A DNA stretch of 64,000 bases from Candidatus Peregrinibacteria bacterium (GTDB taxonomy: Bacteria; Patescibacteriota; Gracilibacteria; UM-FILTER-43-11; JACRIE01): assembly GCA_016220165.1 (NCBI GenBank), contig JACRIE010000040.1, positions 16,364-80,363 on the forward strand, read 5' to 3'. This document shows positions 6,402-60,141 of the stretch, one piece after another (position 1 is the stretch's first letter; the number at the start of each line of letters is the position of its first letter). Below the pieces are notes generated by a model. The model was not told where the DNA came from. It ran no database searches and was given only the letters and a program-made list of their open reading frames with translations. Both the position numbers and the translations under genes were made by a program.

Positions 6402-6480
6402 ATACAATTTTTTTATTTTAAAGAAAAGGATTTTTACACGGCTTACCATAACAAATACGTAAATGAAAATCAAACGCCTC

Positions 6481-9515: not shown

Positions 9516-12500
9516 TTATTTTTTGTCCTGGGTCGCGGTTTCCATAAAGGTAACCGTTTTTTGACTGATTTCAGGCGTTCCTTCGTTGAAAACTTCAAGG
9601 ATACGAAGGAGTTCGGTATTGGTTTTGCCGCCCATAATGGTGGCCGTGATTTTATCCATATTATCAAAAATCGTATTAAGATTGGCGAATCCTTTCTCTT
9701 TCGAATTTAGCAAACCGTTATTGGTGGCAAAATTATTGTAATGACTATCCAGATAACCGCAGATTCGTTGTACCAACGCATCCGGATCGGAAGTGGCGCT
9801 TCTGGTGTCCCGGATCATCTGAAAAAACGGAGCGTCGATCATGTCCTGAAAAGCCCGTATGCGTTCAAGATTTTTTTGAACATTCCAGTCGCCGTGATTG
9901 GTTTCGCTTGCTTCCCGCGCCGTCGCGTTAAGAATGCTGTTATTCATGCGTTTGTAAATCTGGGTGTCGCGATACGCCACGTTTCCCAGAATACCTTCCA
10001 TCATGGCCATAGAAGCCATATGCCGCGTAAAATTAGCGCGAAAATTCGTTGCATCGGGGTCACGCGCGTTTTCTTCCATGTACTGCAATGTCCCGACGAT
10101 CGTGTTTTCCACGGCTGTATCTTCACGGGCCTGTTCTCCTGATTTTCCGGACAGGAACTGTTTCATGGTGTTGGCGTCCCCCATGCATGAAATGGTGCGC
10201 GCCCAGTCATGATCCCATTTGCGCATAATGACGGCCTTTCGGACGCGCTGGGTCACCATGGAGTCATTCAGAACCTGGGTCCAGTAGAAATTTTTAAACT
10301 CGCCCCGGCATTTCCCGTCTTTGTAGTCCTCGCCGAATTGCTGCTGGCATGTTCTCTTATAATCTTCCCTGGTGAGCGGAGGACGCTTGTTATAAAACCA
10401 CTGGCTGGCCGGCCAGTTATTAAGATACGTGTCGTCCAAAGCCAAAGCGCGATCCTCTTCAAGCAGACCTGAGGCCGTGCCTACCATGAGATAAAACATA
10501 GCCGCTTCCGCGTAGGATTTTCCGTTGAGGATGGCGAATTCGATGGCGGCCTCGTATTCGGCCGGATCCACCTTGCCTCCGGCAACATGCTTTTTATAAA
10601 GCTCTTCCATGCGCCCTGTAAGAACGCTCGCCAATTTTTTGTAGGACTCCTGATATTCCTTCTTATGGCTTTCATAATGGCTTTCATTGGTGCGCTCCAG
10701 CGTGGTGTATTCATCATAATCCCAGATTTCACCCAAAGCCTTGTGGAGCTTGGTGCGGAGCAAATTGGGGGAAAGGGCCATGGAGGTGTCATTCGGATCC
10801 AGAAACACCTTATTCTGGAGGCGATTCAGCACTTTCCATAATTCAGGTTTAGACCAATTGATACGGCCTTTGTCGGCCAGAATCCTCAGGATCGCCTTCA
10901 ATTCATCTTTCTCCGGAGGCAGCGGATTCTCCGCCATACTCACGATTTGCTTTTCCAGATCCCAGGCATCCATATTTTCATACCGCCCCTTCCATTCGTT
11001 CACTTCCTCCTGCTCCGCTTTCTGCATGCGGGCTTTGGATTCCTGGCCCATACTGGTCCCTGCGAACAGCGCGGAGCCCAATTTCGCCGCATGATCCGCC
11101 TTGCGTCGCTTAAAACGGCGTTCCGTGAACTCGAAAAAATCTCTGCCGACCTGGAGGATGTCCTCGACGCACAGAAAGGAGGTTTTAAGCCATAATGCCG
11201 CGAAAGGGTTGAGTATTCCTTTGTCACTGGCGGACGACGCGGATTCCAGCTCCTTCATCACGGTTCCGAACGCGTGTTTTTCAAGAAGCCCGATCCGGCT
11301 TCCAACGGTTTTCCCCAATGCTTTATTTGAAGGATGTTCATCGTATTCTTCATTTATTTTCTCCGTTTCTTCCAGATAGGTAATCATGGTGCTGATCAGC
11401 GCCCCTATTCCGGGGATGCCTCCCGCGAAAGGGGAATGCGATGCCCCGTACAGGGCTTCCTTGAGCCTTTCAAGTTTTTGCCCAAACTCTTTGGCGGAAC
11501 TCGTTCCTTCATCAGTCTCTTTTGCTCCTGTTTCTTTTTCTTCTTCTTCTTCATCCTCTCCTGCGGCCACGGCGCCGGCAATGCTCGCTTTTTCCGAGTC
11601 CGCGATGATCTCCTCCGCCGTGCGCGTGTCGGACGGATTGAAAACTTCAATTCCGCCGATCGCGGAAAAGGCGGTCAGCAAATCGCGGTGCTTAGTATTC
11701 TTGCCCACCGGCATATCCTGCATGGCATAGAGCTCGCTGATGATTTCCCCGTCAGGCCACGTATAGGGCTCTGTGGCGTCCTTTCCCGCCGTGTGCGGCT
11801 TTTTAATGGCACCGATCTCAGCCATAAACCGATCGCGGACTTCCGGCCACTTCTTGTGTCCCAAAACAAGCGCGATGTATTCCCGCCTCTGCTGTTCCGG
11901 CATGCTGTCGAACTCCAGATGACGCATCTCATGGGTCAGATCCGTGCGGAAGGCGCGCGACTCTTCCTGCGTCCGGCTTTCTTCTTCTCCGTCTTTCGGT
12001 TTGCGGATAATGATTTTCCAAACGTGCCCTTTGGTATAAAACACCATGCCGCCATTCGTGTACTGACTATAATCGTCATTAAATTTTTTAAACGGCAAAC
12101 GCTCAACATGATCTTTAAAAAACGGGTCTTTCAGAAATTCATCCGGAGAAGTTTGTGAGTTTTTCAAAACATGGACCAGCCCTTGTACCTTTTGATAGCG
12201 GATATTTTTCTCAAATTCAGGATCTTTCCAGGCGCCGCTCACACGCTCCTCAAAACTTCCCACCGCGTCAAACGTTTTTTTCAGTTGAGCCAATCCGTTC
12301 GTCAGCTCAAGCCGCTGAAGCCGCGTCAGGGCGGCAGGATCGGCCAATAGGGCTTCAAATTCATCGAGCGAACGCTGAGCGCTTCCATCGCGCAACTTTT
12401 GGATGGCTTCGCGCGCCAGCTCGGTGTGTCGCGGCGGATGATCGGGAACAGACACGCCTGTAAGTATCGCGGCTCTACGGGCTTTTTGTGATGGATTCCC

Positions 12501-13586
12501 CAAAGAAGCTTCTAAAAAATTCAAGGTTTCGGGCGTGATGGCGCCGAGCTCTTGCCGCAAAGCAATGATGGACTTTCTGGCTTCGGCAGCTTGTTCGTCT
12601 CCATGAGCGACGGATTCATATAAATCTTTGCCCATATCATGAATATTCCTTTGAATAGTCACGAAGTCTCGAAGAAGTGTCCTATAGGTTTTGGGATCCG
12701 TCCGCGCCTCAGGATCCATAAACTGCCTCTCCATCGCGTCACCCGTTTTTTCAAAACGCCGCTCCGCCTCCCCGCGTTCCTCGGAATCCAGATTTTTAAG
12801 GAATTTTTGCGCCTCGGCATAAAGCGCCTCCTTCTTTTTTCGCAGATAGTCCTGAAGATGTCCGATCTGATACTGACGAATCTCCAGGGTTCGCGCTCGC
12901 TCACGCTCATAATCTTCCGGAATCTCCTCTCGCGCGTTCAAAACCAGATTTTTTCCGACGATCGCCCCTAGTTCTTCCCGAAAACCCCGACGCTGGTTGC
13001 CAACCTCAATGCGATCATTCGAGGGAAGACCGGTCTCCAGGGAATTAATATACGTATTGAGAGAACGAAGCTGATCCATTCGTCCTTCCATATCCTGATC
13101 CGTCGTAATAGGCTGACGAAGGGCTTCCAGCTCATTCAATTCCTGCTGAAACTCCCGCCGTTTTGTCAAATCCAGTTCGCCCTGCAAACGCGCCTGCAGA
13201 CCTACAACCTCGCGGCCGATAATGTCCGTGGGCGCGCCGATATCGGCGCGCGGCTGAAAGGGGATGCCCTTTCCAGCTCTTTTCTGTATTTGCTCATCGA
13301 TTTCCCCAAAATTCGCACCGTTTTCAACAAGATACTCCCGTTCCTTCTGCAATTCTTCCAGAAGGCTCCTCTGCACTTCGGACAATTTCTCCCGCAATGC
13401 CTTCCCCAGGCGTATGTCGCTCTCTCGTTCGATCTGCACAACCAAATCTGCCTCTTCTCTTTCAAGCGAAGCCCTGGCGCCACGAACCATATCAATACCC
13501 CTTTTGGAATCCTTTAAAAACGCGAAAAATTCGCCGAGAAAAGGATTTTTTTCATACAACCCGTGGCAGAAACATTTTAAGTACAT
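9516..13586 (-). CDS. 1356-aa protein of unknown function with a coiled-coil-rich N-terminus, an HExxH motif and an acidic tract
   Basis: Single uninterrupted ORF with no signal peptide. HEMRH occurs in TDLTHEMRHLEFDS, and an acidic run in GEDEEEEEKETGAKETDEG. No P-loop. The conserved leader hairpin sits immediately upstream. Confidence 0.8.
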   Translation of the reverse strand: MYLKCFCHGLYEKNPFLGEFFAFLKDSKRGIDMVRGARASLEREEADLVVQIERESDIRLGKALREKLSEVQRSLLEELQKEREYLVENGANFGEIDEQIQKRAGKGIPFQPRADIGAPTDIIGREVVGLQARLQGELDLTKRREFQQELNELEALRQPITTDQDMEGRMDQLRSLNTYINSLETGLPSNDRIEVGNQRRGFREELGAIVGKNLVLNAREEIPEDYERERARTLEIRQYQIGHLQDYLRKKKEALYAEAQKFLKNLDSEERGEAERRFEKTGDAMERQFMDPEARTDPKTYRTLLRDFVTIQRNIHDMGKDLYESVAHGDEQAAEARKSIIALRQELGAITPETLNFLEASLGNPSQKARRAAILTGVSVPDHPPRHTELAREAIQKLRDGSAQRSLDEFEALLADPAALTRLQRLELTNGLAQLKKTFDAVGSFEERVSGAWKDPEFEKNIRYQKVQGLVHVLKNSQTSPDEFLKDPFFKDHVERLPFKKFNDDYSQYTNGGMVFYTKGHVWKIIIRKPKDGEEESRTQEESRAFRTDLTHEMRHLEFDSMPEQQRREYIALVLGHKKWPEVRDRFMAEIGAIKKPHTAGKDATEPYTWPDGEIISELYAMQDMPVGKNTKHRDLLTAFSAIGGIEVFNPSDTRTAEEIIADSEKASIAGAVAAGEDEEEEEKETGAKETDEGTSSAKEFGQKLERLKEALYGASHSPFAGGIPGIGALISTMITYLEETEKINEEYDEHPSNKALGKTVGSRIGLLEKHAFGTVMKELESASSASDKGILNPFAALWLKTSFLCVEDILQVGRDFFEFTERRFKRRKADHAAKLGSALFAGTSMGQESKARMQKAEQEEVNEWKGRYENMDAWDLEKQIVSMAENPLPPEKDELKAILRILADKGRINWSKPELWKVLNRLQNKVFLDPNDTSMALSPNLLRTKLHKALGEIWDYDEYTTLERTNESHYESHKKEYQESYKKLASVLTGRMEELYKKHVAGGKVDPAEYEAAIEFAILNGKSYAEAAMFYLMVGTASGLLEEDRALALDDTYLNNWPASQWFYNKRPPLTREDYKRTCQQQFGEDYKDGKCRGEFKNFYWTQVLNDSMVTQRVRKAVIMRKWDHDWARTISCMGDANTMKQFLSGKSGEQAREDTAVENTIVGTLQYMEENARDPDATNFRANFTRHMASMAMMEGILGNVAYRDTQIYKRMNNSILNATAREASETNHGDWNVQKNLERIRAFQDMIDAPFFQMIRDTRSATSDPDALVQRICGYLDSHYNNFATNNGLLNSKEKGFANLNTIFDNMDKITATIMGGKTNTELLRILEVFNEGTPEISQKTVTFMETATQDKK

Positions 13587-13665
13587 AATTCAGTGACAAG
13601 TGACGAGTCAATAGAGACGAGTAACGAGTTGCAAGTTTTTTCTCGTCGCTCGTCACTAAAAATAT
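13587..13665 (-). promoter_or_regulatory. structured 5' leader, copy A of a duplicated promoter-leader module
   Basis: In gene orientation: agtgacgagcgacgag-aaaaaacttgcaa-ctcgttactcgtctctattgactcgtcacttgtcactgaatt-ATG. Positions 13610-13647 are 38/38 identical (as reverse complement) to 55070-55107. Confidence 0.7.
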
Positions 13666-13671
13666 CTAATT

Positions 13672-13700
13672 ATTATACCAAAAAATGGCCTTTTTATCAA
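13672..13700 (-). promoter_or_regulatory. sigma70-type promoter (TTGATA-17-TGgTATAAT) for the 1356-aa gene
   Basis: The -35 tatcaa is at 13695-13700 and the -10 attata at 13672-13677 (plus-strand spelling). The TGn extension is at 13678-13680. The layout matches the promoter at 55017-55045. Confidence 0.55.
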
Positions 13701-13782
13701 TGCTTTTCAGCATTTACTCCTCAGGTTTCAGAAAACAGGTTCGGGTCGCTTATTTAGACATCACTAGCCCGATTTTGTGATT

Positions 13783-13810: not shown

Positions 13811-13817
13811 TATTATA

Positions 13818-13846
13818 TTGACATATAACTAATTGTATGATATTTA
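13818..13846 (+). promoter_or_regulatory. promoter-like site for the 13876 lipoprotein gene (TTGACA-17-TGaTATTTA)
   Basis: TTGACA at 13818-13823 and a weak -10 TATTTA at 13841-13846 with a TGn extension. Confidence 0.35.
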
Positions 13847-13875
13847 TATATACATACTATTTTTCAAAAAACTTT

Positions 13876-14865
13876 ATGCGATCTCTTTTATCTCTCTTCC
13901 GCACGCCGGAAACAGGCCGTCCGGGAGCGCCAGCCCGTATCTGCGCTGCCGCGCCCGCTCTAGTCCTTGCCTTAGGCACCGGCTGCGCCGCTCTTATGGG
14001 CGATGTAAGGAAAGAATGTGATGCCCTCCTGGAATCTCAGGGCCTGTGTCCAAAAGTATCCGCGTCGCCAGCCGCGCCCGTACCTCCTCCTCCGCCGTCT
14101 CCGGTGGTAATAGCGGCTACGCCGGCAGAAGCGGCGTCAACGCCTTCCGAGCCTGAACCGCCGGAAGGGGAACCGCCGTCAGGGCCTGATCCGGAACTTT
14201 TAAAATCCGTTTTGGGACAGATGCATCAACCCGGAGCCGGGCCGGAAGAAACTCCGTTAAACGACGCCTTAGATAAACTGATCGGACAGGAGCAATGCCA
14301 AAAAATAATCGGAATCCGTGCGGAAGTGGATCGGGACGCCGCTCCTTTTTTAAAGGATTTACCCCAGGAATACCGTAGCCGCTCTTTCCCTTCTTTTTTG
14401 TCAGGTTCAACCCAAAAAGAATTTGAACGTAATCTCCTGACCGCGATGATTGAAATCAACGGACAGATTATCCGGGCGCTTGAAAAAGCGCTGGGGTTTA
14501 AAATCCCGATTCATCCTCTGCGTCTGCCAACGGGACCGGAGCATTTCAAACCGCATTTCGTGCCGAAAACAAGGCGCCAACGCCTATTATTGACTACCGG
14601 AATCGATCCGGCTTTCGCGACACGATTGCTTTATCTTGCTTTGGATTCTGCTGAAACAAACGCTTCATGCGGCACAATAACCGAACCCGAAAAAACGCCT
14701 TCGCCCGACCGCGAACCGATTTCGCCGCGGCCTGAAAATCCATCGAAAATCGGACCAGGGAATCCGTTGGATTTGGATGTTTGTCCGCCCGATACAACTC
14801 TTTTGGATGGCGAATGTTTTCCAAAGGACCTCCCGCCGCTCGATTTACCGCCTCTTCCCGATTAA
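13876..14865 (+). CDS. proline-rich putative lipoprotein or secreted protein, unknown function
   Basis: Started at MRSLLSLF...AAAPALVLALGTGCAAL (signal or lipobox-like sequence ending in Cys). PAAPVPPPPPSPVV and PSEPEPPEGEPPSGPDPE linkers. ORF track start 13837 lies inside the promoter, so Met14 is preferred. GC-rich. Confidence 0.6.
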   Translation: MRSLLSLFRTPETGRPGAPARICAAAPALVLALGTGCAALMGDVRKECDALLESQGLCPKVSASPAAPVPPPPPSPVVIAATPAEAASTPSEPEPPEGEPPSGPDPELLKSVLGQMHQPGAGPEETPLNDALDKLIGQEQCQKIIGIRAEVDRDAAPFLKDLPQEYRSRSFPSFLSGSTQKEFERNLLTAMIEINGQIIRALEKALGFKIPIHPLRLPTGPEHFKPHFVPKTRRQRLLLTTGIDPAFATRLLYLALDSAETNASCGTITEPEKTPSPDREPISPRPENPSKIGPGNPLDLDVCPPDTTLLDGECFPKDLPPLDLPPLPD

Positions 14866-14891
14866 AAATCTGAATTTCTTAAACCGGATCC

Positions 14892-17971: not shown

Positions 17972-20125
17972 CTAGTCTCCGCTATACGTCACCCAATTAT
18001 TCAACTCGATCATCTTCATTCGATAAATAGTTTCAGCCACTTCGGCGCGGGTCATGCCTTTCGCGGGCTCCAGGCGAGGATTATGATCCTCGCCTTCAGT
18101 AAGTGGCATCACGTTTTTCTTGTTGGCAAGAAATGCGTAGGACGCGAACCATGAATCCGTTGGGACATCTTCATAAGGCTTTACCTCTGGAGGAGCGGAA
18201 TCCATATTGTTCGTCTTAAAAAGGATTTTCAGGTATTCCGCCCGGGTCACGATTTGTGACGGTCGGAACGTGCCGTCGGCGTAGCCTCCGACAATATTCT
18301 TTTGAAGTGCCGTTGCCAAAAAAGACGCGTACCAATCGTTATTATTCGTATCCTTGAAATTCAAAGAGGCTCCCTTTTGGGCTTCAATATTAAAAGCAAG
18401 CATCAGCATCTTAAGGGCTTCGGCGCGATTCACGGTTTGATTGGGACGGAAACTTCCATCCGCGTATCCTCCTACGATTCCATTCTCTTTCAGAAATTTA
18501 ATCGATTTGAAATAGGGGTTCGTGGCGCTGATATCCACAAAAAGATTGCCGTTTTCACTGAAGAGTGGATTGCTTTCACCAATGAGCGCGCCGTTTTGCG
18601 CGCGAACCACAATCGTTTCGTCCGTCAGCGCAGTCATGAAAACAGACGCGGCTCCTTCCTTAAAATCTTTGAATTCCAATGCTTCCGGTTTAAAACGGGC
18701 TGAGCCTTGCTTGGCTGTCAATTGGATGATCCCTGTAAAATTATAAACGGGCGTCGGTTTTCCATTGGCGTCGATCGCCTTAATCACGAGCTCCTTGGGA
18801 ACCCCTTTAACGAAATGCCCGTCCTGCTCAATCTTAAAACCGGCAACCGGGTTCGCCTGCTCGATAAAGTTAACTTCATAAGCGCTTTTTCCGATCGTAA
18901 TCAAACTGCGGCCGAGCGTTTCACTGCGAACCGTGAATTGCGCCACGCGATTCACAAAATCGGACGATTTGAGATGTCGGTTACTCACGCGGGCGTCGCC
19001 TTCCACCTGGACATCGACCGTATCGTCAGACTTCCATTGTGAGACTTGATCCTTTTCATCCTCGATGTAGAGATTGATGCTACTCCCCAAAAGCGCGAAG
19101 TGTTCTCCGGTAATTTTAAAAACCGAAAGGTCAAGGGGGTTCGCCGCTTCCACAACCGATGAAGGAGAGGCGATCGGACTGGATTCCGGAGCAGCTGGTT
19201 CCGGAGTCACGCCTTGAGGAGCCACGGTTGTTTCTGAAGGCACTTCCTCGGTAGAAGCAATGCCGGAATAAACGGATTTCAGATATTTATCGAGATAGGG
19301 GAAAGGATCGATCGTATTTCTTTCAGCATTGTCTTTTCCGAGTCCGGCGCTCACCGCGTCAAAAAAACTGAGGCCGGCCTTTTGAGCTTCGTTCCAGGTG
19401 AAAGGCCAATAAGGATGCCAGGGGGCTGAATCGCGGTCGATTTGAAAGTGCAGATGAGGGGTCGTAGCCGTCCCTGTTTTGCCGCTGCGGCCGATCATAT
19501 CGCCCTTTTTCACATTCTGCCCTTCAACGACATTGACATCGCTCATGTGGGCATAAACGGAATAAAGAACAGCGGTCTGCCCGGGATAATCCGGATCCGG
19601 CGTATCCGGGTGACGGACGACGATATGATGGCCGAAACCGCTTTCCTGTACAGTCGACTTAATCACGCGACCGTTGGCAATGGCATAAATAGGCGTTCCT
19701 TCCGGAAGTTTTAAATCAACGGCCAGATGGCTTCCCGAATATTCTTCATGGTTGTTGTTATAAGCCGCCATGTAAACCACGGCGTAAGTGATTTTACTGT
19801 TACGGATTCGATCGCTTTCAGGGTCTTTCCAAAGCAATTTACTGTCCGGATAGCGCAAATCGGAAAGCGTGTAAGGCGGCAGATCGATCAGCTGATTTTC
19901 AGGAATCTTTTGATACGTCGGCATAGCGCTGCCGGTGACAAGAAATTTATTCCAATCCGGCACTTTTTGAACCGGATACGTGGTGCCGTTAAAAGGCTGT
20001 GGCGGCTCTAAAAGCGTTGCGCGAAACCATTCACTCGTTTTCTCCCCATAATAAACAATCACCAAAAAAAACAAAGTTCCTGTGATGAGTCCTGCGTATT
20101 TAAGGAGTTTTTTGTTTTTGAACAT
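17972..20125 (-). CDS. M23 family metallopeptidase with three C-terminal SLH domains
   Basis: M23 motifs: HLAVDLK..GTPIYAIANGRV, GHHIVVRH, YAHMSDV and GKTGTATTPHLHFQI. SLH repeats: ATNPYFKSIKFLKENGIVGGYADGSFRPNQTVNRAEAL, then two more. Started at MFKNKKLL (20125) so that it does not overlap recF. Confidence 0.85.
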   Translation of the reverse strand: MFKNKKLLKYAGLITGTLFFLVIVYYGEKTSEWFRATLLEPPQPFNGTTYPVQKVPDWNKFLVTGSAMPTYQKIPENQLIDLPPYTLSDLRYPDSKLLWKDPESDRIRNSKITYAVVYMAAYNNNHEEYSGSHLAVDLKLPEGTPIYAIANGRVIKSTVQESGFGHHIVVRHPDTPDPDYPGQTAVLYSVYAHMSDVNVVEGQNVKKGDMIGRSGKTGTATTPHLHFQIDRDSAPWHPYWPFTWNEAQKAGLSFFDAVSAGLGKDNAERNTIDPFPYLDKYLKSVYSGIASTEEVPSETTVAPQGVTPEPAAPESSPIASPSSVVEAANPLDLSVFKITGEHFALLGSSINLYIEDEKDQVSQWKSDDTVDVQVEGDARVSNRHLKSSDFVNRVAQFTVRSETLGRSLITIGKSAYEVNFIEQANPVAGFKIEQDGHFVKGVPKELVIKAIDANGKPTPVYNFTGIIQLTAKQGSARFKPEALEFKDFKEGAASVFMTALTDETIVVRAQNGALIGESNPLFSENGNLFVDISATNPYFKSIKFLKENGIVGGYADGSFRPNQTVNRAEALKMLMLAFNIEAQKGASLNFKDTNNNDWYASFLATALQKNIVGGYADGTFRPSQIVTRAEYLKILFKTNNMDSAPPEVKPYEDVPTDSWFASYAFLANKKNVMPLTEGEDHNPRLEPAKGMTRAEVAETIYRMKMIELNNWVTYSGD
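18070..18099. repeat. hairpin repeat family copy inside the M23/SLH peptidase gene
   Basis: ccAGGCGAGGAT-tatg-ATCCTCGCCTtcag. Read on the minus strand as TEGEDHNPRLEP. Confidence 0.8.
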
Positions 20126-20192
20126 AGTTGTTTTATACTCATCATGATTAATCTGAATATTATACCAATTTTTAAGCCAAAAATCAATCCTC

Positions 20193-27177: not shown

Positions 27178-27215
27178 CTAGTGACGAGTAAATGCGTTTC
27201 TCGTCTCTCGTCTCT
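27166..27215 (+). promoter_or_regulatory. GACGAG-type hairpin (copy C), overlapping the rmuC stop and upstream of the pilin-like operon
   Basis: AGAGACGAG-tgactagt-GACGAG-taaatgcgttt-CTCGTC-t-CTCGTCTCT. It shares AGTGACnAGTGACGAG ... CTCGTnnCTCGTCTCT with the leaders at 13587-13665 and 55052-55139, but the loop differs. Confidence 0.6.
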
Positions 27216-27222
27216 AATCCGC

Positions 27223-27251
27223 TGGTTTTTTGGCTTTAGAAATGGTATAAT
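27223..27251 (+). promoter_or_regulatory. extended -10 promoter for the pilin-like operon (TGgTATAAT)
   Basis: TGG at 27243-27245 and TATAAT at 27246-27251, with a weak -35 tggttt at 27223-27228. Confidence 0.5.
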
Positions 27252-27274
27252 AAATAGATTTAATCTATCTTTTG

Positions 27275-27688
27275 ATGGTACATAAAATTATTGCAGGATC
27301 GGCGCTCCTCTTTGTACTTATCTTGGTTGTGCCGGCTTTTTCATTTGCCCAGGATACGGTTTCTCCGTTAAATGACAGCGATTTCACATTCGATTTGAAC
27401 GCGATCACTCATCAAAAAATCAAACAGGATCGCTGGATCGATCAGGGCGTCAATTACGTGATTCAGCGCGTCATCACGCTGACCGCCCAAACAATCGGCG
27501 TGATCTCGATTTTAGGATTCAGCGCGGGCGGACTTTTGATTCTCATGTCCGCCGGCAGCGACGAATTAATCACCAAAGGAAAAAATTTAATGAAATACTC
27601 CCTGCTGGGCCTCGTTTTTGTGCTGTCCGCCTATCTGCTTGTCATGACTATCCAAACACTCGTAACGAGTATCTTTAAAGGTTTTTAA
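27275..27688 (+). CDS. TrbC/VirB2-like (T4SS-type) mini-pilin, paralogue 1
   Basis: Signal peptide (AGSALLFVLILVVPAFSFAQ) and a C-terminal helix-loop-helix: ISILGFSAGGLLILMSAGSDELITKGKNLMKYSLLGLVFVLSAYLLV. ATG at 27275; the track uses the TTG at 27272. Confidence 0.65.
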   Translation: MVHKIIAGSALLFVLILVVPAFSFAQDTVSPLNDSDFTFDLNAITHQKIKQDRWIDQGVNYVIQRVITLTAQTIGVISILGFSAGGLLILMSAGSDELITKGKNLMKYSLLGLVFVLSAYLLVMTIQTLVTSIFKGF

Positions 27689-27695
27689 CCGTATC

Positions 27696-28319
27696 TTGAA
27701 ACGTTATCTTTTTTCAATCACCGCTTTTTTATTCCTGATGATCGGGCTGGTTGGCCCTGTCAGCTTAACTTATGCACTTGGCGCCCCCGAACAGGGCGAA
27801 TTGAAAGTGGCTGATACGGTCAGCGGATGTGAAGGAATTATCTACGGAGGAGGAAATAAAAAAAATTCGATGCCCATCAATTGCCTTTTTCTGGATGAAC
27901 CCATCGGCGGCAAGCCGGGTTATGATTTATTTTCAAGGGAGTGCAAAAAGGCCGACAAAAATAAGCAGCCGGCCGAACCCTCCCAGTGCGAATATAAACT
28001 ATGGACCGGAGGCTCCATTGACCCGGGCAAAGGCCCTTTTCAGGCCATACTTTCCTACACGCCGGGCAAAGAGGCGCAGGGGTCGCTTCAGCTTTTGTAT
28101 AACTACGTGGGGCTGATCTACAAATATCTTTCCGGCGTCATTGTCGGCGTCACGGTCTTGATGACCGTGGTCGGGGGAATCCAGATCATCACGTCGCATG
28201 GATCCGAAGGAAAAACCGCCGGCACGGACCGCATCCTCCATTCCTTGCTGGGCATGGTACTGTGGTTTTTGGCGTCCCTGATCCTTTACACGATTAACCC
28301 GACCTTCTTCCGGTTTTAA
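27696..28319 (+). CDS. TrbC/VirB2-like mini-pilin, paralogue 2, with a Cys-containing insert
   Basis: TTG start, signal peptide, 4-Cys middle region, and C-terminus VLMTVVGGIQIITSHGSEGKTAGTDRILHSLLGMVLWFLASLILY. Confidence 0.6.
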   Translation: MKRYLFSITAFLFLMIGLVGPVSLTYALGAPEQGELKVADTVSGCEGIIYGGGNKKNSMPINCLFLDEPIGGKPGYDLFSRECKKADKNKQPAEPSQCEYKLWTGGSIDPGKGPFQAILSYTPGKEAQGSLQLLYNYVGLIYKYLSGVIVGVTVLMTVVGGIQIITSHGSEGKTAGTDRILHSLLGMVLWFLASLILYTINPTFFRF

Positions 28320-28322
28320 AAA

Positions 28323-28724
28323 ATGGTGATTATGAAAAAATATTACATGGTTCTCATCGGCGTTTTAATTAATTTTTCTCAGGCATTAGCGCTTGCGACA
28401 AATGAGACTCAAATCACCGAACCGTTGGGCGGCGACACCCTTTTGGGAAAAACATTGTTTCAGAAAGACGTTGGAACTGGCATTCAGGGTAGTTTTATTT
28501 TTAGTAAACTTATTCCTTTTTTAATCAGATATGGCATTCAGCTCGCGGTGGCGCTCGCCGTCATCGCGATCATCGCGGGAGGTTTCCAATTCATCATCGC
28601 GTTCGGAAATACCGAAAAGCGCGAAGCAGCTCAAAAAACCATTATTTATGCCGTTATCGGCCTAGTCATCGCGTTAACCGCGTATGGAATCGTCAAAATT
28701 ATCACCGGCATTAATCTCGTCTAA
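28323..28724 (+). CDS. TrbC/VirB2-like mini-pilin, paralogue 3
   Basis: Signal peptide and AIIAGGFQFIIAFGNTEKREAAQKTIIYAVIGLVIALTAYGIVKII. Confidence 0.65.
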   Translation: MVIMKKYYMVLIGVLINFSQALALATNETQITEPLGGDTLLGKTLFQKDVGTGIQGSFIFSKLIPFLIRYGIQLAVALAVIAIIAGGFQFIIAFGNTEKREAAQKTIIYAVIGLVIALTAYGIVKIITGINLV

Positions 28725-29351
28725 ATGAGCCTCTTCATTTCTTTAAAAAAAGGCGTTCCATTGTTCACTCTCTTTGTTCTTTTCGTTATTTTACTATCCC
28801 CTGGACGACTACTGGCGGACCGCACACCGCGCGATATCATGAAAGACGAGCTGGCTCGAATCAGCCAGACGATCGACAGGACTGATCTGGACGACACCAT
28901 TAAGATAGAAAACGACAAAACTCAAAAGCAGATCATCGGGGAACTTCTGGACATCGCTGAAAACAAAGTTAATGACGATCCAACTAAGACGAGTGACGAT
29001 GACGCGCGATCGGCGATTCAGGCCGTCCAGCAGGCGTTAGTCAATCCGCATCTATTTAAAAATGCGATAAATGATAAAAAGGAAGTCACCCAAGTCGCAT
29101 TGGATGTCCTGAAAGGCGACATTTTCGAGGATCTGGTGCCTCAACTCATCAAACTCGCCTTCAAAGTGGCCTGGGTCGTCATCTTTATCTCGTTTTTGGT
29201 CTCCGGCATCCTCATGATCCTGTCCATGGACAGCGAAGACCGTCTGGTTAAGGCCAAAGCCATTCTCTATTATTCGTTGATCGGCTTTACAATGATAACG
29301 CTGGCGTTCGCCATCGTGAAGGCCCTAACCAATATCAATTTTTTCAGTTAA
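28725..29351 (+). CDS. TrbC/VirB2-like mini-pilin, paralogue 4, with an extended N-terminal domain
   Basis: Starts on the base after the previous stop. Signal peptide, charged helical region, and C-terminus FLVSGILMILSMDSEDRLVKAKAILYYSLIGFTMITLAFAIV. Confidence 0.6.
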   Translation: MSLFISLKKGVPLFTLFVLFVILLSPGRLLADRTPRDIMKDELARISQTIDRTDLDDTIKIENDKTQKQIIGELLDIAENKVNDDPTKTSDDDARSAIQAVQQALVNPHLFKNAINDKKEVTQVALDVLKGDIFEDLVPQLIKLAFKVAWVVIFISFLVSGILMILSMDSEDRLVKAKAILYYSLIGFTMITLAFAIVKALTNINFFS

Positions 29352-29753
29352 ATGAACCAGAAAAAAAACATCATCAATGGTATTTTCGCTGCATTTCTTT
29401 CGTTTTTTCTAAAAGCTCACAAAGCGGCTGCTTTTGGGATCAACGATTTCCGGAGCGAGCTGTTCAAGCCCATCAATTTGACGGGCATCAAAAGCACGAC
29501 GCTCGGCGCCGCGGCCAAAATCACAGTAGCCGCCAATTTTTTTATCAATTTAATCCTTTACGCTTCGGGTGGACTTGCGGTATTGTTGCTCATCATCGGA
29601 GCCATCCAATACATTTCCAGTTTCGGCCAACAGGAGGGAATGGACAGAGGTAAAAAAACGATCCAATACGCTTTGCTGGGCCTCCTCGCAGTTATCACGG
29701 CCTATTTTATAGTCACTAATCTCATTAAAATTCTTTACAGTACCGCAGGATAA
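29352..29753 (+). CDS. TrbC/VirB2-like mini-pilin, paralogue 5
   Basis: Starts on the base after the previous stop. LLIIGAIQYISSFGQQEGMDRGKKTIQYALLGLLAVITAYFIV. Confidence 0.65.
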   Translation: MNQKKNIINGIFAAFLSFFLKAHKAAAFGINDFRSELFKPINLTGIKSTTLGAAAKITVAANFFINLILYASGGLAVLLLIIGAIQYISSFGQQEGMDRGKKTIQYALLGLLAVITAYFIVTNLIKILYSTAG

Positions 29754-29835: not shown

Positions 29836-29848
29836 AAAGTCAAATTCA

Positions 29849-46533: not shown

Positions 46534-46538
46534 AAAAT

Positions 46539-46570
46539 AAGAAGACGAGGATATATATCCTCGTCTTCTT
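46539..46570. terminator. bidirectional terminator hairpin, AT-shifted member of the hairpin repeat family
   Basis: aagaagacgaggatat / atatcctcgtcttctt, a perfect 32-bp palindrome between convergent mltG and the 688-aa gene, flanked by A-run and T-run. It differs from the 51511 copy by a compensatory G>A / C>T pair. Confidence 0.7.
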
Positions 46571-54930: not shown

Positions 54931-55016
54931 AAACTCAAAGTTAAGATTAATTTTTTTAAATTTAACACAAGATTCTACCCCGCGCAAATGGATTGTACGG
55001 TTCACACCGTAAACCC

Positions 55017-55045
55017 TTGAGTTTTAGGCTTATTTTTGCTATAAT
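55017..55045 (+). promoter_or_regulatory. sigma70-type promoter (TTGAGT-17-TGcTATAAT) for the 55140-60141 operon
   Basis: The -35 is at 55017-55022, TGc at 55037-55039 and TATAAT at 55040-55045. Its architecture and spacer resemble 13672-13700 on the other strand. Confidence 0.6.
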
Positions 55046-55051
55046 AATCAG

Positions 55052-55139
55052 ATAAATCAAGTGACGAGTGACGAGAAAAAACTTGCAACTCGTTACTCGT
55101 CTCTATTAGTTCGTCACTGGTCACTCGTCACTAAGTAAA
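55052..55139 (+). promoter_or_regulatory. structured 5' leader, copy B of the duplicated promoter-leader module
   Basis: agtgacgagtgacgag-aaaaaacttgcaa-ctcgttactcgtctctattagttcgtcactggtcactcgtcactaagtaaa-ATG. Hairpin 55063-55075/55089-55101 (13 bp including one G.U) competes with the perfect 13-bp pairing 55060-55072/55120-55132. Confidence 0.7.
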
Positions 55140-55640
55140 ATGGATATGAACGATCTCGAAATTGCAGAAAATCAGGATCCGGTGCTACTCGCCTGGCAGG
55201 CGCCGGAATTCATCAGCCATCCACGGGGGAAATTATGGTACACAGTCGTGGGCCTTCTGACCGCTGGAATCGTTGTTTATTCGCTCATAACGCAATCGGT
55301 CACGACAGCCATTGTGTTTTTGCTGCTGGCCACGGTTTACGTGCTGACCCGTAATCAGAAGCCAAGGACAATCGATATCAAAATCACGCAGCTGGGAATT
55401 TGGGTTCATCGGACGTTCTATCCCTACAACATGATCCGTTCCTTTTGGGTGGTATACACTCCGCCGTTTGTTCAGACGCTCAACCTTGAAATCGCCAAAA
55501 AATCCCTTCCGCACGTCGCGATTCAGCTCAACGGTCAGGAACCCGTTCCGATCCATGAGATTTTAAGCAAAAAAATCCCTGAAGCCGAAGGGCGCGAGGA
55601 AAGCCTCATGGAAATCGTCACCAGACTTTTCCGACTTTAA
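55140..55640 (+). CDS. small two-TM membrane protein, unknown function
   Basis: 166 aa. W.APEF..H.R...WY is followed by two TM helices (VVGLLTAGIVVYSLI and AIVFLLLATVYVL) and a beta-rich C-terminal domain. Confidence 0.7.
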   Translation: MDMNDLEIAENQDPVLLAWQAPEFISHPRGKLWYTVVGLLTAGIVVYSLITQSVTTAIVFLLLATVYVLTRNQKPRTIDIKITQLGIWVHRTFYPYNMIRSFWVVYTPPFVQTLNLEIAKKSLPHVAIQLNGQEPVPIHEILSKKIPEAEGREESLMEIVTRLFRL

Positions 55641-55654
55641 CAGTTTAATTCATT

Positions 55655-57853
55655 ATGACAGCGTCTGTTCCTGAAACAGCGGTGATAGAAGCGCAAAAGG
55701 CATTTGAAGTCACTCTTTTCCCTGAAAGCGTTTCCGCGGATAACTTAGCCGCCCAATTTGCCGAACGCTACGATCCAAAAAAATACGAAGACGCGATCCG
55801 GACATACGTTGACACGATCACCGCGAAAGATGAAAAAAGCGCCAGTCTTACGGCTGAATCCGTAAGAGCTTATGAAGTATTTTATCAAAAAAATATGGGC
55901 GATCTTCTGAAAGACGCCAAAGCCGAAATGAGTCGCTATCAGGAAGCCCAAAAAGCCATCCGCGACTGGACACGGAATGAGCTTGGCCTCTTAAGAGCGC
56001 AAGTGGAGGCGGCGCGGCGCGTAGCGCCTGCGACCGAAGCGGCCAAAAAGGCCCCGACGGCCAAATATGCGGAAAAAAACAACCTTTTGGGACTTTTCGC
56101 ATCAGCGGACTATAAAACCTATTCCGAAAGCAAAGATAAAACATCCGATCTCTTTGAAAACTACCTAAAAACTTTGAACGATCAGTACCTCGATCTTCCG
56201 CGCCAAAAACGGAATCTCATCGATGAGTTCGGCAAAAAAGAGGGCGGAGATCGCTTTGGGCGTTATAAGGCCATGGCTGACACGTTCAGGGAAGGGATGA
56301 GGGCGCGCGTCGTCGGTAAAATTGACCTTATTTTCTACGAAGGGGCCGCTCCTGAAAAAATCGCGGCGCTTCAGGAAGAAATTCAAAAGGCCTACGCGGA
56401 TTTCGCCAAAAACGATGATGAGATCGGGTTTGAGGATTTAACCGCGCTGGATCGAACCGCCGCGTTTGGAATCGATTTGAACTTATTGGTAAATGGCACA
56501 GGCAGCCGTCAGGCGATTCTCGATCAACTGGAGACGCAGCATTCCATGCGACCCGAGGTCTGGGAAAAAACGGCCGGGGGATTCACGAAGCGCCTCATCG
56601 AAAACGCGATTAACAATGGTCAATCCGGGGCGATTATTACGTTCGTGAAACAATATTGCGTAAAAATCGGACGGCCAAACGATACGCTTGATTTGAAAGG
56701 CGCCTGCAAAGAACTCGTGGCCATGACGGAACGCGCGGCCAAAGCGGGAATCAGGGAAACGCTTGCCTTATGGGAAGGAGAAAACGGACTCGATACGATT
56801 GTCAACGGGCCTCTGAAAAAATCGGCGAATCAAACGGATCAGCGCATCCGCGCGACAGCCATCCTGGAGCGCGCGCAATTATTGACCGAGGAAGTGTGGC
56901 CCAAGAACGAGCCGGATCGGGCCGTAGTCACATTCATTCGCTCTGATTTTGAAGGACGCGGCGAGATCCTGAATAATCCGGGCCGTCTATCGGAGCTCCT
57001 GGAAGGCGTCAAAATCGCAACCGTGGATTACGCCAAAGCGCTGAAGGGATATCTACCCGCCGGCAGTCGGAAATTGGAGGGAAGGGCGGCCCGCGATCCC
57101 GCTCGTCTGCAGGCGCTGATACTGCTGGGGCAGGAGGCGGAAACGATCATTATAAACTTCGGACAGAAGGAAAAATATGAAAAAATTAAAACCGAACACG
57201 AAAAAGACGCGCCCTATCCCGTCGATCTTAAATTCGGCAGTCTTAAAGACCGGCCGGACAATCGTTACATTTCCAATGTCGCGTTGGGCGGATTCAGCGG
57301 TATAGGATTAGGCGGCACGCTCCTTCAGGTGCTGGCGGGGGCAACCCTGGTCGCGAACGTGATGTCCTCCGGATCGGATGCCTGGAAAAACCCGTACGTA
57401 GCGGCTTCGGTGGGCGTTCTTACCGGCTTTCATTACAACAATCGCATGCCGGGCGGGCTTGCCGGCTATCCAATGGCCAGTGAAGCGGAACGCCAGCTTA
57501 AGATGACCCATCTGCACCTAAACACGTTGTGTCTGAATCGCGATTTTAAGAAGGATGCGGTAGTAAAATTTTGCCATACCTCTGCCGAATTCAACGCGAT
57601 CCGGGCGCTCGTTCGTGAGCCATCCAGGATAAAAAAACTAGTTGAAGACGCAGTCAAAAAACCGAATGACCCCAAATATCCAGTGATAAAAGCCGCGGAT
57701 CTGAAAAAGGCGGGAATCGATGAAAAACTGACCGGCGTAACGGACGATCCTCGTCAGTCCCGCCTGCGGTATGAATTTTATAAAACCTTCCTGCTCGGCC
57801 AAAAAAGCGTCAATGTCACGAAACTGCGGGAAGACTGTCGTTTATTCAACTAA
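55655..57853 (+). CDS. 732-aa protein of unknown function with a hydrophobic Gly-rich hairpin near residues 560-610
   Basis: Long helical N-terminal part with no signal peptide. VALGGFSGIGLGGTLLQVLAGATLVANV and YVAASVGVLTGF are predicted membrane segments. No recognised catalytic motif. Confidence 0.75.
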   Translation: MTASVPETAVIEAQKAFEVTLFPESVSADNLAAQFAERYDPKKYEDAIRTYVDTITAKDEKSASLTAESVRAYEVFYQKNMGDLLKDAKAEMSRYQEAQKAIRDWTRNELGLLRAQVEAARRVAPATEAAKKAPTAKYAEKNNLLGLFASADYKTYSESKDKTSDLFENYLKTLNDQYLDLPRQKRNLIDEFGKKEGGDRFGRYKAMADTFREGMRARVVGKIDLIFYEGAAPEKIAALQEEIQKAYADFAKNDDEIGFEDLTALDRTAAFGIDLNLLVNGTGSRQAILDQLETQHSMRPEVWEKTAGGFTKRLIENAINNGQSGAIITFVKQYCVKIGRPNDTLDLKGACKELVAMTERAAKAGIRETLALWEGENGLDTIVNGPLKKSANQTDQRIRATAILERAQLLTEEVWPKNEPDRAVVTFIRSDFEGRGEILNNPGRLSELLEGVKIATVDYAKALKGYLPAGSRKLEGRAARDPARLQALILLGQEAETIIINFGQKEKYEKIKTEHEKDAPYPVDLKFGSLKDRPDNRYISNVALGGFSGIGLGGTLLQVLAGATLVANVMSSGSDAWKNPYVAASVGVLTGFHYNNRMPGGLAGYPMASEAERQLKMTHLHLNTLCLNRDFKKDAVVKFCHTSAEFNAIRALVREPSRIKKLVEDAVKKPNDPKYPVIKAADLKKAGIDEKLTGVTDDPRQSRLRYEFYKTFLLGQKSVNVTKLREDCRLFN

Positions 57854-57864
57854 AAAATCGATCC

Positions 57865-58125
57865 GTGTCCATCGAACAAACCGACATCATTGACCGCCAG
57901 GCGAACCAGGCCCAAATCAACCGGCACCGCGAAGAAGAGGAAACGGACTCCCAGCAATCCGCCTCAGGCGGGCGGCAGCGGAAACAACGACAGTCCGACC
58001 CCTCCCCTGCCTCGGGCATGGCCAAAGCCGCCATCGGCGGCATGAAAAAAAAATTACTGATCGCGGTCGGGGCCACCGGCGGCGTCGCGGGAATAGGCTC
58101 CCTGATTAATTATCTTATCGGCTAG
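57865..58125 (+). CDS. small tail-anchored membrane protein
   Basis: GTG start, a charged N-terminus, and a C-terminal TM helix (LLIAVGATGGVAGIGSLINYLIG). Tightly packed between its neighbours (11-nt and 3-nt gaps). Confidence 0.45.
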   Translation: MSIEQTDIIDRQANQAQINRHREEEETDSQQSASGGRQRKQRQSDPSPASGMAKAAIGGMKKKLLIAVGATGGVAGIGSLINYLIG

Positions 58126-58128
58126 CCC

Positions 58129-60141
58129 ATGGAACGATTTCAAAAAATCATCGTCACAGCGCTCCTCTGCATCTCGCTCGCGTTGACGCTGGCGGGCGTG
58201 AGCGGGCAAGGCAAAGTTTACGCAAAACCGCCCGCCGACCCCGGAACAATTTCTTCTGACTCTGGCGGCGCGCCCGCTAGTCCGGCGGCAACCCCCTCAA
58301 AAAAACCCGAGACCGATCCTGTGACGTTTCAGGAGCTGGTAAAAAAAACCCTGCAGGCTTCCACAACGGTTAACCGGATTTTCAGTCCCATGATTCACTT
58401 CTTGGTCTTCCAGATCGGAAATTTTTTGGGAAACGACTACATTTATGGCGGCGATATGGGCACGATGCTCCACACCATTTGGGTCATCATGCGGAACATC
58501 GTTAACGTCATCTTCGCGCTGATCTTATTAGCAATCGCCCTGATGAACGTGATCCGGCCAGAAGGCGATTCGAATTTCGCCATCAAAAAAACGCTCCCGA
58601 AATTGGTGCTGGTGCTCATCGCGGTCAACTTTTCATGGATGGCGAGCCGCGTGATTCTGGACGCGGCCAACGTGGCCACTAATATCATTTTCCAGATTCC
58701 CGCCGGAGTCCAATCCGTCGGCAGGCCGGATCCAAAAGACTGCACCGTCGACTCGACGAAAAATACGTATGAAGGCGATTGCGCCCCTTATAAGATATAT
58801 TTTCCTTTTGACGGAAAAGAAGCGGATTACAACAAAGAGAATTGCCCCCCTGAAGATGAAATCGATAAAGCTTACGCTTACAAAGTAACAGACAGTAGCG
58901 CATCGGATATGGGTCCGGAAAAACAAGCGTATGATAAGTACTTTGGCAAACGCATTTTCTGCTGGCAGACCATGGATTTTACAAAATACAACCAGAACAC
59001 GGCTTCCCTGTTTTTGTCGTACGGCATGGTCAAAGTCCAGAAAATCGGCCAAATGAGTCAGGCGATCAAAGAAGGCGACACGATCAAAGCGATCGATAAA
59101 ACCTTCATCGGCACCGTCTTCGCTCTTGCCATCCAAATCGTTTATCTGGCAACCTTTCTGGCCCTGTGGCTCGGCCTGCTGGCCCGCACCGCGGCGCTGT
59201 GGCTGCTCGTAGCCTTTTCGCCGATACTGCTTCTGGCGCTCGCCGCCAAAGAGGCCGGCGTCAATCTTCTTCCGGAACAGCTCTCGTTCAATTCATTCAT
59301 CGATTACGCCTTCATTCCCGCCAAAGTCGGAGCCGTGCTTTCGATCGGCTTCATCATGATCGCGGCAGGCCAGACGATGGGCGATTTCTCCTCGAATTCC
59401 ACGGGAAAAATCCTCGAAATAACCAATTTTGCCGGCATGGAAACTCTGCAGCAGTTCATCTGGCTCGTCATGGTCATCGTCGTGGTCTGGATGGGAGTGT
59501 TCGCGATCCTCGGCAAGACCCCCGGAGTTTCTCATCTCACGGGCTGGATCGGCGAGCTGGGCAACCGCGCCGGGAAGTTTATTTCCACCGCGCCCAAATG
59601 GGCCCCCATTATTCCTTTGGGTGTTGACAAACAAACAGGCAAGGCCAAATGGAGGAGCGCTGAAACGATTGACAGGGAGGTGAGCGATAAATTCCACGAC
59701 GCCCTCCGTGAATTCCAGGGAATCAGGGGAACGAGTCAGAACGAAGCGGATAAACTGGCTGAAATGCTGAGAAAGGATGAAAGGGCCCGGCAGGAGCTCG
59801 TCAAAACGACCGATCACAAAGACATCGTCACAAAAATAAACGCGACGCTGAAAATAGACAGGGAGAAACTGAGAGACGTGACCCGGGATAATAAATTGAC
59901 CGGCCTCCTGACGAGCGGAGGAATAGACGCGACCAATGCCGAACGCATAACCGCCGCCGTCCGCCAGGAACTGGATCTGAATCCAGCTGCCGCAGGGTCT
60001 GCGGTATCCGCTCCCGTTCAGCCAGCCGCCGCACCGCCACTACCTCCTGCGCCGCCAGCGCCTCCTGCAACAGTCCCCCCTGCCGCTCCCGCTGGATCTG
60101 GTGCACCTAATGGTGGAACTGGAACCGCCGCCAGACCATAA
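58129..60141 (+). CDS. polytopic membrane protein, possibly TrbL/VirB6-like, with a Cys-containing extracytoplasmic loop and a Pro-rich tail
   Basis: 670 aa. Signal peptide, about 6 TM helices, a loop of about 150 aa with 4 Cys (DCTVD..GDCAPY..ENCPPED..IFCWQ), a cytoplasmic coiled-coil, and a PAAAPPLPPAPPAPPATVPPAAP tail. The VirB6 assignment rests on topology only. Confidence 0.75.
   Translation: MERFQKIIVTALLCISLALTLAGVSGQGKVYAKPPADPGTISSDSGGAPASPAATPSKKPETDPVTFQELVKKTLQASTTVNRIFSPMIHFLVFQIGNFLGNDYIYGGDMGTMLHTIWVIMRNIVNVIFALILLAIALMNVIRPEGDSNFAIKKTLPKLVLVLIAVNFSWMASRVILDAANVATNIIFQIPAGVQSVGRPDPKDCTVDSTKNTYEGDCAPYKIYFPFDGKEADYNKENCPPEDEIDKAYAYKVTDSSASDMGPEKQAYDKYFGKRIFCWQTMDFTKYNQNTASLFLSYGMVKVQKIGQMSQAIKEGDTIKAIDKTFIGTVFALAIQIVYLATFLALWLGLLARTAALWLLVAFSPILLLALAAKEAGVNLLPEQLSFNSFIDYAFIPAKVGAVLSIGFIMIAAGQTMGDFSSNSTGKILEITNFAGMETLQQFIWLVMVIVVVWMGVFAILGKTPGVSHLTGWIGELGNRAGKFISTAPKWAPIIPLGVDKQTGKAKWRSAETIDREVSDKFHDALREFQGIRGTSQNEADKLAEMLRKDERARQELVKTTDHKDIVTKINATLKIDREKLRDVTRDNKLTGLLTSGGIDATNAERITAAVRQELDLNPAAAGSAVSAPVQPAAAPPLPPAPPAPPATVPPAAPAGSGAPNGGTGTAARP

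Follow-up and report, generated by a model that had tools for sequence, protein, structure and literature searches.

What does a giant protein with a lone HExxH motif do in a small-genome bacterium? The question was raised by a first-pass annotation, made from the letters alone, of 64,000 nucleotides (nt) of DNA from Candidatus Peregrinibacteria bacterium (assembly GCA_016220165.1, contig JACRIE010000040.1, positions 16,364 to 80,363 of the forward strand), to which we refer as the window. The annotation singled out one gene, here called giant, as encoding a cytoplasmic-looking protein with a zincin-like motif, and speculated that the product might be a translocated effector or toxin. The explanation that we prefer, and to which as a whole we give an even chance, is that giant represents a lineage-specific core protein family found in Peregrinibacteria and related Patescibacteria, and that the protein, which has a gluzincin-type domain and lacks a Sec signal, works with an envelope apparatus resembling a type IV secretion system (T4SS), either as a component or as cargo.

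The giant protein, its family and its predicted protease domain

The giant gene lies on the minus strand (9516..13586), starts with ATG, is monocistronic and encodes 1356 amino acids (aa). The first-pass annotation was correct in its coordinates and in calling this the longest open reading frame (ORF) of the window, the runner-up encoding 1055 aa. The stop codon is 7 nt from that of the convergent priA gene. Because the peak 19-residue Kyte-Doolittle mean of the product is only 1.43, we agree with the earlier reading that it has no signal peptide or transmembrane (TM) segment.

A word-indexed homology search, run with the whole protein and with a 32-sequence alignment, returned only giant itself and one distant relative from a Candidatus Peregrinibacteria metagenome-assembled genome (MAG). 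This search probably missed orthologues present in the same collection, low-complexity words of the charged region having filled its candidate list. An exhaustive HMMER search with aa 157-1356 as the query related 467 cluster representatives to giant at E<=0.001, 116 of them at E<=1e-30. All named relatives are annotated as "hypothetical protein" and come from MAGs of Peregrinibacteria, Peribacteria, Gracilibacteria or "Patescibacteria group", and the giant protein had no match in Pfam, NCBIfam or PDB sequences. The family falls into three clades. Clade 1 contains close orthologues of 1300-1470 aa, 37-42% identical and alignable from about aa 480 to the C-terminus; clade 2 proteins (1500-1800 aa) have the protease motifs and the C-terminal domain in common with giant; and clade 3 proteins (1050-1250 aa) have the C-terminal domain only, without HExxH and without the WDHDW motif described below.

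The protein would consist of four parts: a short N-terminal motif, a charged helical region, a gluzincin domain, and an acidic linker followed by a helical domain of about 640 residues. The N-terminal motif, found by eye and with a regular expression, reads NPFLGEFFAF in giant (aa 14-23; 13518..13547, minus strand). Many members of all three clades, though not all, carry it in their first 15-35 residues, with the approximate consensus F-x-(G/S)-E-x-R-h-x-F; a loose regular expression caught 28 of 121 sequences. This recurrence supports the ATG at 13586 as the true start. The charged helical region that follows (aa ~33-480; 12147..13490, minus strand) is poorly conserved in sequence. The first-pass annotation had described a heptad-rich N-terminus of about 450 aa: the N-terminal ~350-450 aa are indeed rich in charge, and heptads occur in patches interrupted by Pro or Gly, as judged with a crude score of our own, by which the description is roughly right. 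The only matches of an orthologue profile in the PDB were to coiled coils, and they fall in this N-terminal overhang.

The THEMRHLEF stretch that had been placed near residue 560 is present, with HEMRH at aa 552-556 (11919..11933, minus strand) as the sole HExxH of the protein. A single HExxH is not significant alone, since about 0.05 are expected per giant protein from composition; conservation in relatives raises it above chance, and we rejected a chance match on these grounds. Essentially every full-length close orthologue carries the motif. In alignments of 22-51 clade-1 sequences, H552, E553, H556, W580, E618 and A621 are invariant, W610 is near-invariant (96-98%), and T510, G512, M514, V515, W523 and M622 are conserved in roughly 88-98%. 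As overall identity among the aligned sequences is only 23-34%, the motif residues are under strong purifying selection. E618 and A621 lie in SELYAMQ (aa 617-623; 11718..11738, minus strand), where E618-L-Y-A621 forms an ExxA motif 62 residues past the second His of HExxH. HExxH is also kept in clade 2, which at the aligned position, with the same spacing, shows E-[LIV]-[FLY]-A. In the mechanism that we propose, the candidate ligands H552 and H556 would bind zinc together with E618 as the third ligand, E553 would be the catalytic base, and A621 would be the turn residue of ExxA.

An AlphaFold model of aa 441-1356, built from an 80-sequence alignment, had a predicted local distance difference test (pLDDT) of 87.0 and a predicted template modelling score (pTM) of 0.72; the domain modelled alone (aa 490-646; 11649..12119, minus strand) had values of 86.9 and 0.78. 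The predicted order of elements in the domain is a strand (residues 5-8 of the domain model), a backing helix (10-20), two strands (25-30 and 33-39), a long helix carrying HExxH (51-71), two helices, a loop, the helix carrying E618 and A621 (123-132) and a last helix. In gluzincins, the upper subdomain consists of a sheet of three strands, a backing helix and the helix of the active site, and the third ligand is on a "glutamate helix", three residues before a small turn residue that is usually Ala (PMC6414381). Because the AlphaFold layout fits this definition, we call the domain gluzincin-type, a minimal metallopeptidase of predicted fold. The zincin-like label of the first-pass annotation is thus borne out, the motif being invariant in orthologues and its surroundings predicted as a gluzincin layout rather than a plain helix. 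As to a third zinc ligand and a Met-turn, E618 of ExxA is a candidate for the former, and a Met-turn and a third His are absent. We also rejected a metzincin, because in HEMRHLEFD (HELLHLEFE in the orthologue consensus) Gly is missing at +3 and neither His nor Asp stands at +6 past the second His.

The best Foldseek match of the domain in the PDB was 4l7a (BACCAC_01431), a structural-genomics entry from Bacteroides caccae for a putative Zn metallopeptidase. It was the only fold match above noise (probability 0.96, 151 aligned columns), but the match has an E of only 0.019, a TM-score of 0.39, a root-mean-square deviation of 7.9 A and an identity of 13%; 4l7a itself has no known function. In the viral library BFVD, all fold matches had E>0.05, with the names "lethal factor", IrrE, SprT-like and "polyvalent" recurring. 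Sub-threshold Pfam matches of the domain, in scans of individual family members, were all to zincins (SprT-like, Peptidase_M91 and Tox-MPTase2; E 0.02-0.05). A profile of the protease domain found nothing relevant in the PDB, a ferritin match at E 0.1 being dismissed as spurious.

Several points count against a protease. The ligand assignment stands at the level of sequence and secondary structure, and the Foldseek result supports the zincin fold weakly. No curated peptidase family was matched at significance in Pfam, in NCBIfam or in the scans of individual members. Furthermore, proteolysis cannot be the common function of the whole family, because clade 3 lacks the domain. Taking conservation and structure prediction together, we nevertheless consider it likely that this is a real zincin-type metallopeptidase domain, and probably an active one; zinc binding and proteolysis are what the conserved residues and the model would predict.

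The gap of 62 residues between HExxH and the Glu is within the spacing range of M48 and M56 peptidases. Likeness to known gluzincins extends further: in the M48/M56 "minigluzincin", anthrax lethal factor and neprilysin families, as in giant, the HExxH helix follows a three-stranded sheet and a backing helix (PMC6414381). Gluzincin families with HExxH and ExxA have, again as in giant, an invariant Glu that precedes an invariant Ala by three residues on a later helix, and the domain of giant is likewise small, at about 155 aa. It differs from these families in being soluble and in the middle of a 1356-aa protein, in having a long loop and two additional helices that separate the active-site helix from the Glu helix, and in showing no significant sequence match. 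The other zincins to compare are the SprT-like, Peptidase_M91/NleD, Tox-MPTase2 and polyvalent-protein families, which provided the sole sub-threshold Pfam and BFVD matches. Polyvalent proteins of phages and conjugative elements resemble giant in being very large and multidomain with an internal zincin module. However, all matches to the small zincin families are far below thresholds (E 0.02-0.9), the third His that SprT-type families use as a ligand is absent from giant, and, unlike polyvalent and toxin zincins, giant occupies a core chromosomal locus and not a mobile element.

The acidic linker that follows the protease domain (aa ~665-692; 11511..11594, minus strand) was modelled with low confidence (pLDDT 30-43) and includes the EEEEE tract of the first-pass annotation, at aa 679-683. 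Beyond this disordered linker, the C-terminal domain (aa ~698-1340; 9567..11495, minus strand) is predicted to be all-helical, with pLDDT mostly >90. These ~640 residues are the best conserved part of giant, the family core and the sole part common to all clades. The alignment picks out WDHDW (aa 1124-1128; 10203..10217, minus strand), in which D1125 and D1127 are invariant and W1124, H1126 and W1128 are at least 90% conserved. Other invariant or near-invariant charged residues are the RR..R cluster at 823-827, E849, E858, E864, K897, R901, D956, D958, E959, D1007, E1012, R1046, R1114 and K1117. With so many conserved polar residues, the domain may hold a second catalytic site or present a tight interaction surface. 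We found no relative of the domain in Pfam (scans of individual members gave nothing recurrent) or in PDB sequences, and the 916-aa model matched PDB structures at best with E 0.12, to generic helical repeats that we regard as noise.

Shared promoter, leader and T4SS-like genes

The first-pass annotation had giant under a shared leader, and this proved right: the 115 nt upstream of its ATG (13592-13706, minus strand) recur with 82% identity in a second copy of promoter and leader (55011..55125, plus strand), which precedes a three-gene membrane module (55140..60141, plus strand). The 32-nt core of the leader occurs exactly twice in the window. The giant promoter (13664..13700, minus strand) has the -35 box TTGATA (13695-13700), a 17-nt spacer and TGG-TATAAT (13672-13680), followed by AATTAGAT, and the same architecture lies upstream of the giant orthologue in 14 distinct relatives. 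The 5' leader of about 75-80 nt (13587..13663, minus strand) includes an imperfect GTGACGAG...CTCGTCAC palindrome. An insert of about 70 nt in the leader is specific to this genome, the -10 box and the ATG of the orthologues being only about 12-25 nt apart, and a 27-mer of the leader is absent from public genome and metagenome contigs.

The palindromes of the leaders fold better than shuffled sequences, with z-scores of -3.8 (giant leader) and -4.2. The GTGACGAG / CTCGTCAC element has six matches in the window, against 0.76 expected, and the GTGACGAG sites (13600-13656, 27170-27220 and 55061-55131) are confined to the two leaders and a place just upstream of a pilin promoter. These palindromes may function as a genome-specific operator or RNA hairpin.

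The -10 region itself extends the comparison. TATAATA[AT]NNAGAT has four exact matches in the window, where about one would be expected even with one mismatch allowed. The sites, of the form TGnTATAAT followed by A-W-N-N-AGAT-W, are upstream of giant (13664-13677, minus strand), an M23 peptidase with SLH domains (20151-20164, minus), a pilin array (27246-27259, plus) and the membrane module (55040-55053, plus); the remaining intergenic TATAAT boxes of the window lack the A[AT]NNAGAT extension. Across ~460 kb of related loci (L004-L033) there were 22 matches, against a rough chance estimate of our own of ~0.5, all directly upstream of giant (14), M23-SLH (5), the module (3 further genomes) or one 983-aa membrane protein. 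The motif was absent from roughly 25 other promoter families in the same loci, and this absence is not affected by how the loci were chosen. The promoter class may, from its distribution in these sequences, define a regulon.

Further upstream, the sequence GGGCTAGTRA-N13-CGACCCG (13735-13770, minus strand) is conserved in six genomes, about 60-100 nt upstream of the giant -35 box; the other sites are at L004 9831, L005 9861, L006 9820, L016 116 and L024 8402. It has no Rfam match and no covariation. A TATAAT at 13812-13817 (minus strand) could drive a transcript through this element.

The module encodes a 166-aa protein with two TM segments, a soluble protein of 732 aa that has a hydrophobic segment rich in Gly, and a polytopic protein of 670 aa; this last one has a signal peptide, five or six TM segments, an outer loop with Cys and a Pro-rich tail. 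In distant relatives, its genes stand directly beside giant: in L001/L002 and in L008 (clade 3), the giant homologue is the last gene of an operon, immediately after homologues of the two-TM and polytopic proteins. In two other Peregrinibacteria (L011 and L012), the module adjoins a gene for an 843-aa ATPase with DUF87 and TrwB_AAD_bind domains, of the type of VirB4 or type IV coupling proteins. We considered that giant might be a fusion including the middle proteins of such modules and rejected this, since the 732-, 536- and 494-aa proteins are not homologous to its N-terminal half.

The third promoter of the class precedes five tandem genes for VirB2-like pilins (27246..29753, plus strand). 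They encode 138, 207, 133, 208 and 133 aa, with a signal peptide and two C-terminal TM helices, and one of the proteins matches Pfam T4SS_pilin at E 1e-6. The fourth precedes the M23-SLH peptidase gene (17972..20164 including the promoter, minus strand), which has an in-frame start ATG at 20125. Giant is thus linked to T4SS-like genes by the shared leader, by the promoter class and by operon membership in distant relatives. The first-pass annotation had placed giant beside secretion machinery, and linkage to secretion-type genes stands; the partner, however, is the module 41 kb away and not the adjacent cluster with a GspF_N-like gene.

We take the class Gracilibacteria to include Peregrinibacteria in GTDB. 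Patescibacterial T4SS are described as chromosomal and relaxase-free, with arrays of VirB2-like pilins; in Gracilibacteria, no VirB6 can be detected and VirB3 seldom lies close to virB4, "suggesting extreme sequence divergence" (PMC12102498). A cultured Saccharimonadia strain cannot grow epibiotically without its T4SS genes (PMC12102498). The locus resembles these systems (MPF-FATA-like, with VirB4, TrsD, VirB3/PrgI, VirB6 and VirB2-like arrays; PMC12102498) in being chromosomal and relaxase-free, in its five-gene VirB2-like array, in the two-TM and polytopic proteins of the module, and in the VirB4-type ATPase next to the module in the two other genomes mentioned. The module is a natural candidate for the missing VirB3 and VirB6 parts of Gracilibacteria T4SS. 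No described T4SS component resembles giant, which itself had no significant match to known T4SS families, and PMC12102498 reports no large zincin protein among T4SS neighbours, the word "metallopeptidase" having no occurrence in it.

The following considerations speak against tying giant and the module to a T4SS. The 166-aa and 670-aa proteins are VirB3-like and VirB6-like candidates by topology and neighbourhood only. No module protein had a significant match to known T4SS families, and the polytopic protein family had no VirB6 match in the PDB; the two-TM protein of L008 matched VirB3 at E=0.069, below significance. Pfam scans that covered most of the window's ORFs of 150 aa or more found no VirB4-type ATPase, though virB4 could lie outside it, the source contig being 98 kb. 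The related loci were chosen for carrying giant or the module, so the count of 22 promoter matches is biased. Finally, the motif could be no more than a sign of envelope genes with strong expression, rather than of a dedicated regulon. By topology and neighbourhood, the module may belong to a T4SS.

Genomic context and other features of the window

The rest of the window is unremarkable chromosomal DNA of a bacterium with a small genome and carries genes for PriA, phosphoenolpyruvate (PEP) synthase, RecF, S1, a UvrD-type helicase, SecA, HrcA, RuvC, DnaX, Der, SHMT, MetRS, SmpB and tRNA-Ser. In public data, the locus is present only in DNA runs from one groundwater metagenome study, and these Peregrinibacteria are uncultured. 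The order RecF, M23-SLH, PEP synthase, giant, convergent priA, GspF_N-like, 348-aa, 1055-aa and lgt is kept in nearly all of 21 species-level genomes and in further metagenome contigs, as far as each contig reaches. Giant is present in a single copy, flanked by its own promoter and by the end of priA. The genes of clade 2, too, stand singly among housekeeping genes, one of them on a 1.37-Mb contig marked circular. No small conserved gene accompanies giant in about 20 species-level genomes. From the single copy, the fixed synteny and the lack of a small partner gene, we infer a vertically inherited core gene and not a mobile toxin cassette.

A mobile-element toxin was rejected because of the strict synteny. 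A polymorphic toxin/immunity pair does not fit either: no immunity gene is adjacent, the C-terminal domain is the most conserved part and not the most variable, and there is no mobile context.

On the PEP synthase side of giant, two Pro-rich genes (13837-15500, plus strand; 342 and 202 aa, with an N-terminal hydrophobic segment) are specific to this genome; they are absent from the syntenic loci of relatives and have no family match. On the other side, a trio (2263-7773, minus strand) stands beside priA in about 14 related genomes, wherever the contig extends far enough: the GspF_N-like protein (430 aa, with the N-terminal T2SS-F domain only) and the 348-aa and 1055-aa proteins, with no further Pfam matches in the trio.

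A 30-35-nt palindrome, TGAAGGCGAGGATnnnnATCCTCGCCTTCA, has 7-8 copies in the window. The intergenic ones are at 46536-46568 and 51510-51544. Six copies are inside genes (8229-8263, 9183-9217, 18064-18098, 20439-20473, 25015-25049 and 25114-25148), namely priA (two), M23-SLH, recF and a UvrD/PD-(D/E)XK helicase gene (two), where they read in phase as a peptide like (S/T)PEGE(D/N)xxLRLQ. They resemble the in-frame palindromic elements known from Rickettsia. PriA of the window (7848-9509, plus strand) has only 553 aa, against 726-731 aa in orthologues, and lacks about 100 residues at its C-terminus as well as the Walker A motif, which reads GVTGSGKT in L005; one TGAAGGCGAGGATnnnnATCCTCGCCTTCA palindrome occupies the expected place of Walker A. 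Judging by these changes, this PriA may be degenerate or dead as an ATPase.

A SAM riboswitch (29846-29986, plus strand; Rfam RF00162, 69 bits) is upstream of a methyltransferase gene, a homocysteine S-methyltransferase gene and metG. The G+C content is 45-53% across 8-32 kb and 50-62 kb, and 37-41% across 34-46 kb and 0-8 kb.

Subunit, cargo or scaffold

How might giant work with the T4SS-like apparatus, as our preferred explanation has it? The gene would be transcribed from the same special promoter class as the membrane module, the pilin array and the M23-SLH wall hydrolase. The helical C-terminal domain would dock on the cytoplasmic face of the module, and the zincin domain would cleave a partner or substrate there, or giant itself at the linker. 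We lean towards a subunit or adaptor rather than cargo, because the non-catalytic domain is the conserved core, because clade 3 stays in the operon without the protease, and because the gene is single-copy at a fixed position. A more specific version, which we put forward tentatively, is that giant and the module are the missing, diverged, Peregrinibacteria-specific parts of the T4SS, in one regulon with the pilins and the M23-SLH hydrolase; giant would then be a dedicated, protease-bearing cytoplasmic subunit or the first identified protein cargo of the system, its new-fold C-terminal domain coupling to a VirB6-like channel.

It is possible, if rather doubtful, that giant is a translocated effector or toxin, as the first-pass annotation had speculated: T4SS-like cargo delivered into the host bacterium of an episymbiont, where the zincin would cleave a host protein, with the N-terminal motif or the helical domain as the recognition signal. 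This alternative keeps substantial weight, because giant has no Sec signal, because all clades have members with the N-terminal motif, which is what a targeting signal would lead one to expect, and because relaxase-free T4SS have no known function. Giant has neither signal peptide nor TM segment, its zincin is conserved and, on sequence and model, probably active, and the gene shares regulation or an operon with secretion-type genes. Foldseek also showed a weak likeness to proteins that bear the name lethal factor and to large "polyvalent" proteins of phages. Patescibacterial T4SS have no relaxases and no known substrate or function and are thought to be non-conjugative (PMC12102498).

However, one copy at a fixed chromosomal site in about 20 species is not what an effector leads one to expect. 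There is no mobile context, and no immunity-like neighbour, for which the first-pass annotation had suggested looking, lies beside the gene in these species. The best conserved part is the non-catalytic domain, and clade 3 has lost the protease yet stays in the module operon, which fits a machine part better than a weapon. Moreover, known T4SS signals are C-terminal.

We regard it as unlikely that giant is a housekeeping scaffold or cytoskeletal protein unrelated to secretion, serving for example envelope growth or division, with the zincin as a regulatory or processing protease and the promoter as a general strong envelope class. The gene does behave as a core gene, with replication and repair genes nearby; the N-terminal region is long and helical; and the promoter motif also precedes the M23-SLH hydrolase and the 983-aa membrane protein, neither of which has a demonstrated T4SS role. 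A role apart from secretion does not sit well with the presence of giant in the module operon in two distant lineages, with a 115-nt leader that, in this genome, is common to giant and the module only, or with a pilin array that has the same promoter type and the GTGACGAG element.

That the HExxH is a chance or dead motif in a structural protein without catalysis we consider very improbable in view of its conservation: about 5% of proteins of such size and composition would have a single HExxH, and no curated family was matched, but H, E, H, E618 and A621 are invariant at 23-34% identity, the motifs are kept in a second deep clade, and the predicted fold puts the motif residues on the correct helices.

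The zincin module is itself a known kind of domain. What is new here is a family of at least 467 sequence clusters without a Pfam model, including a domain of ~640 aa without a structural relative, and its regulatory and operonic tie to Patescibacterial T4SS-like genes; none of this is described in PMC12102498, although the literature was not searched exhaustively. Patescibacteria (candidate phyla radiation, CPR) make up a large share of bacterial diversity. The locus provides for them a widely conserved candidate T4SS partner or cargo with a candidate catalytic site, as well as candidate VirB3-like and VirB6-like genes, and a promoter motif by which the remaining members of the regulon could be listed for any genome of Peregrinibacteria.

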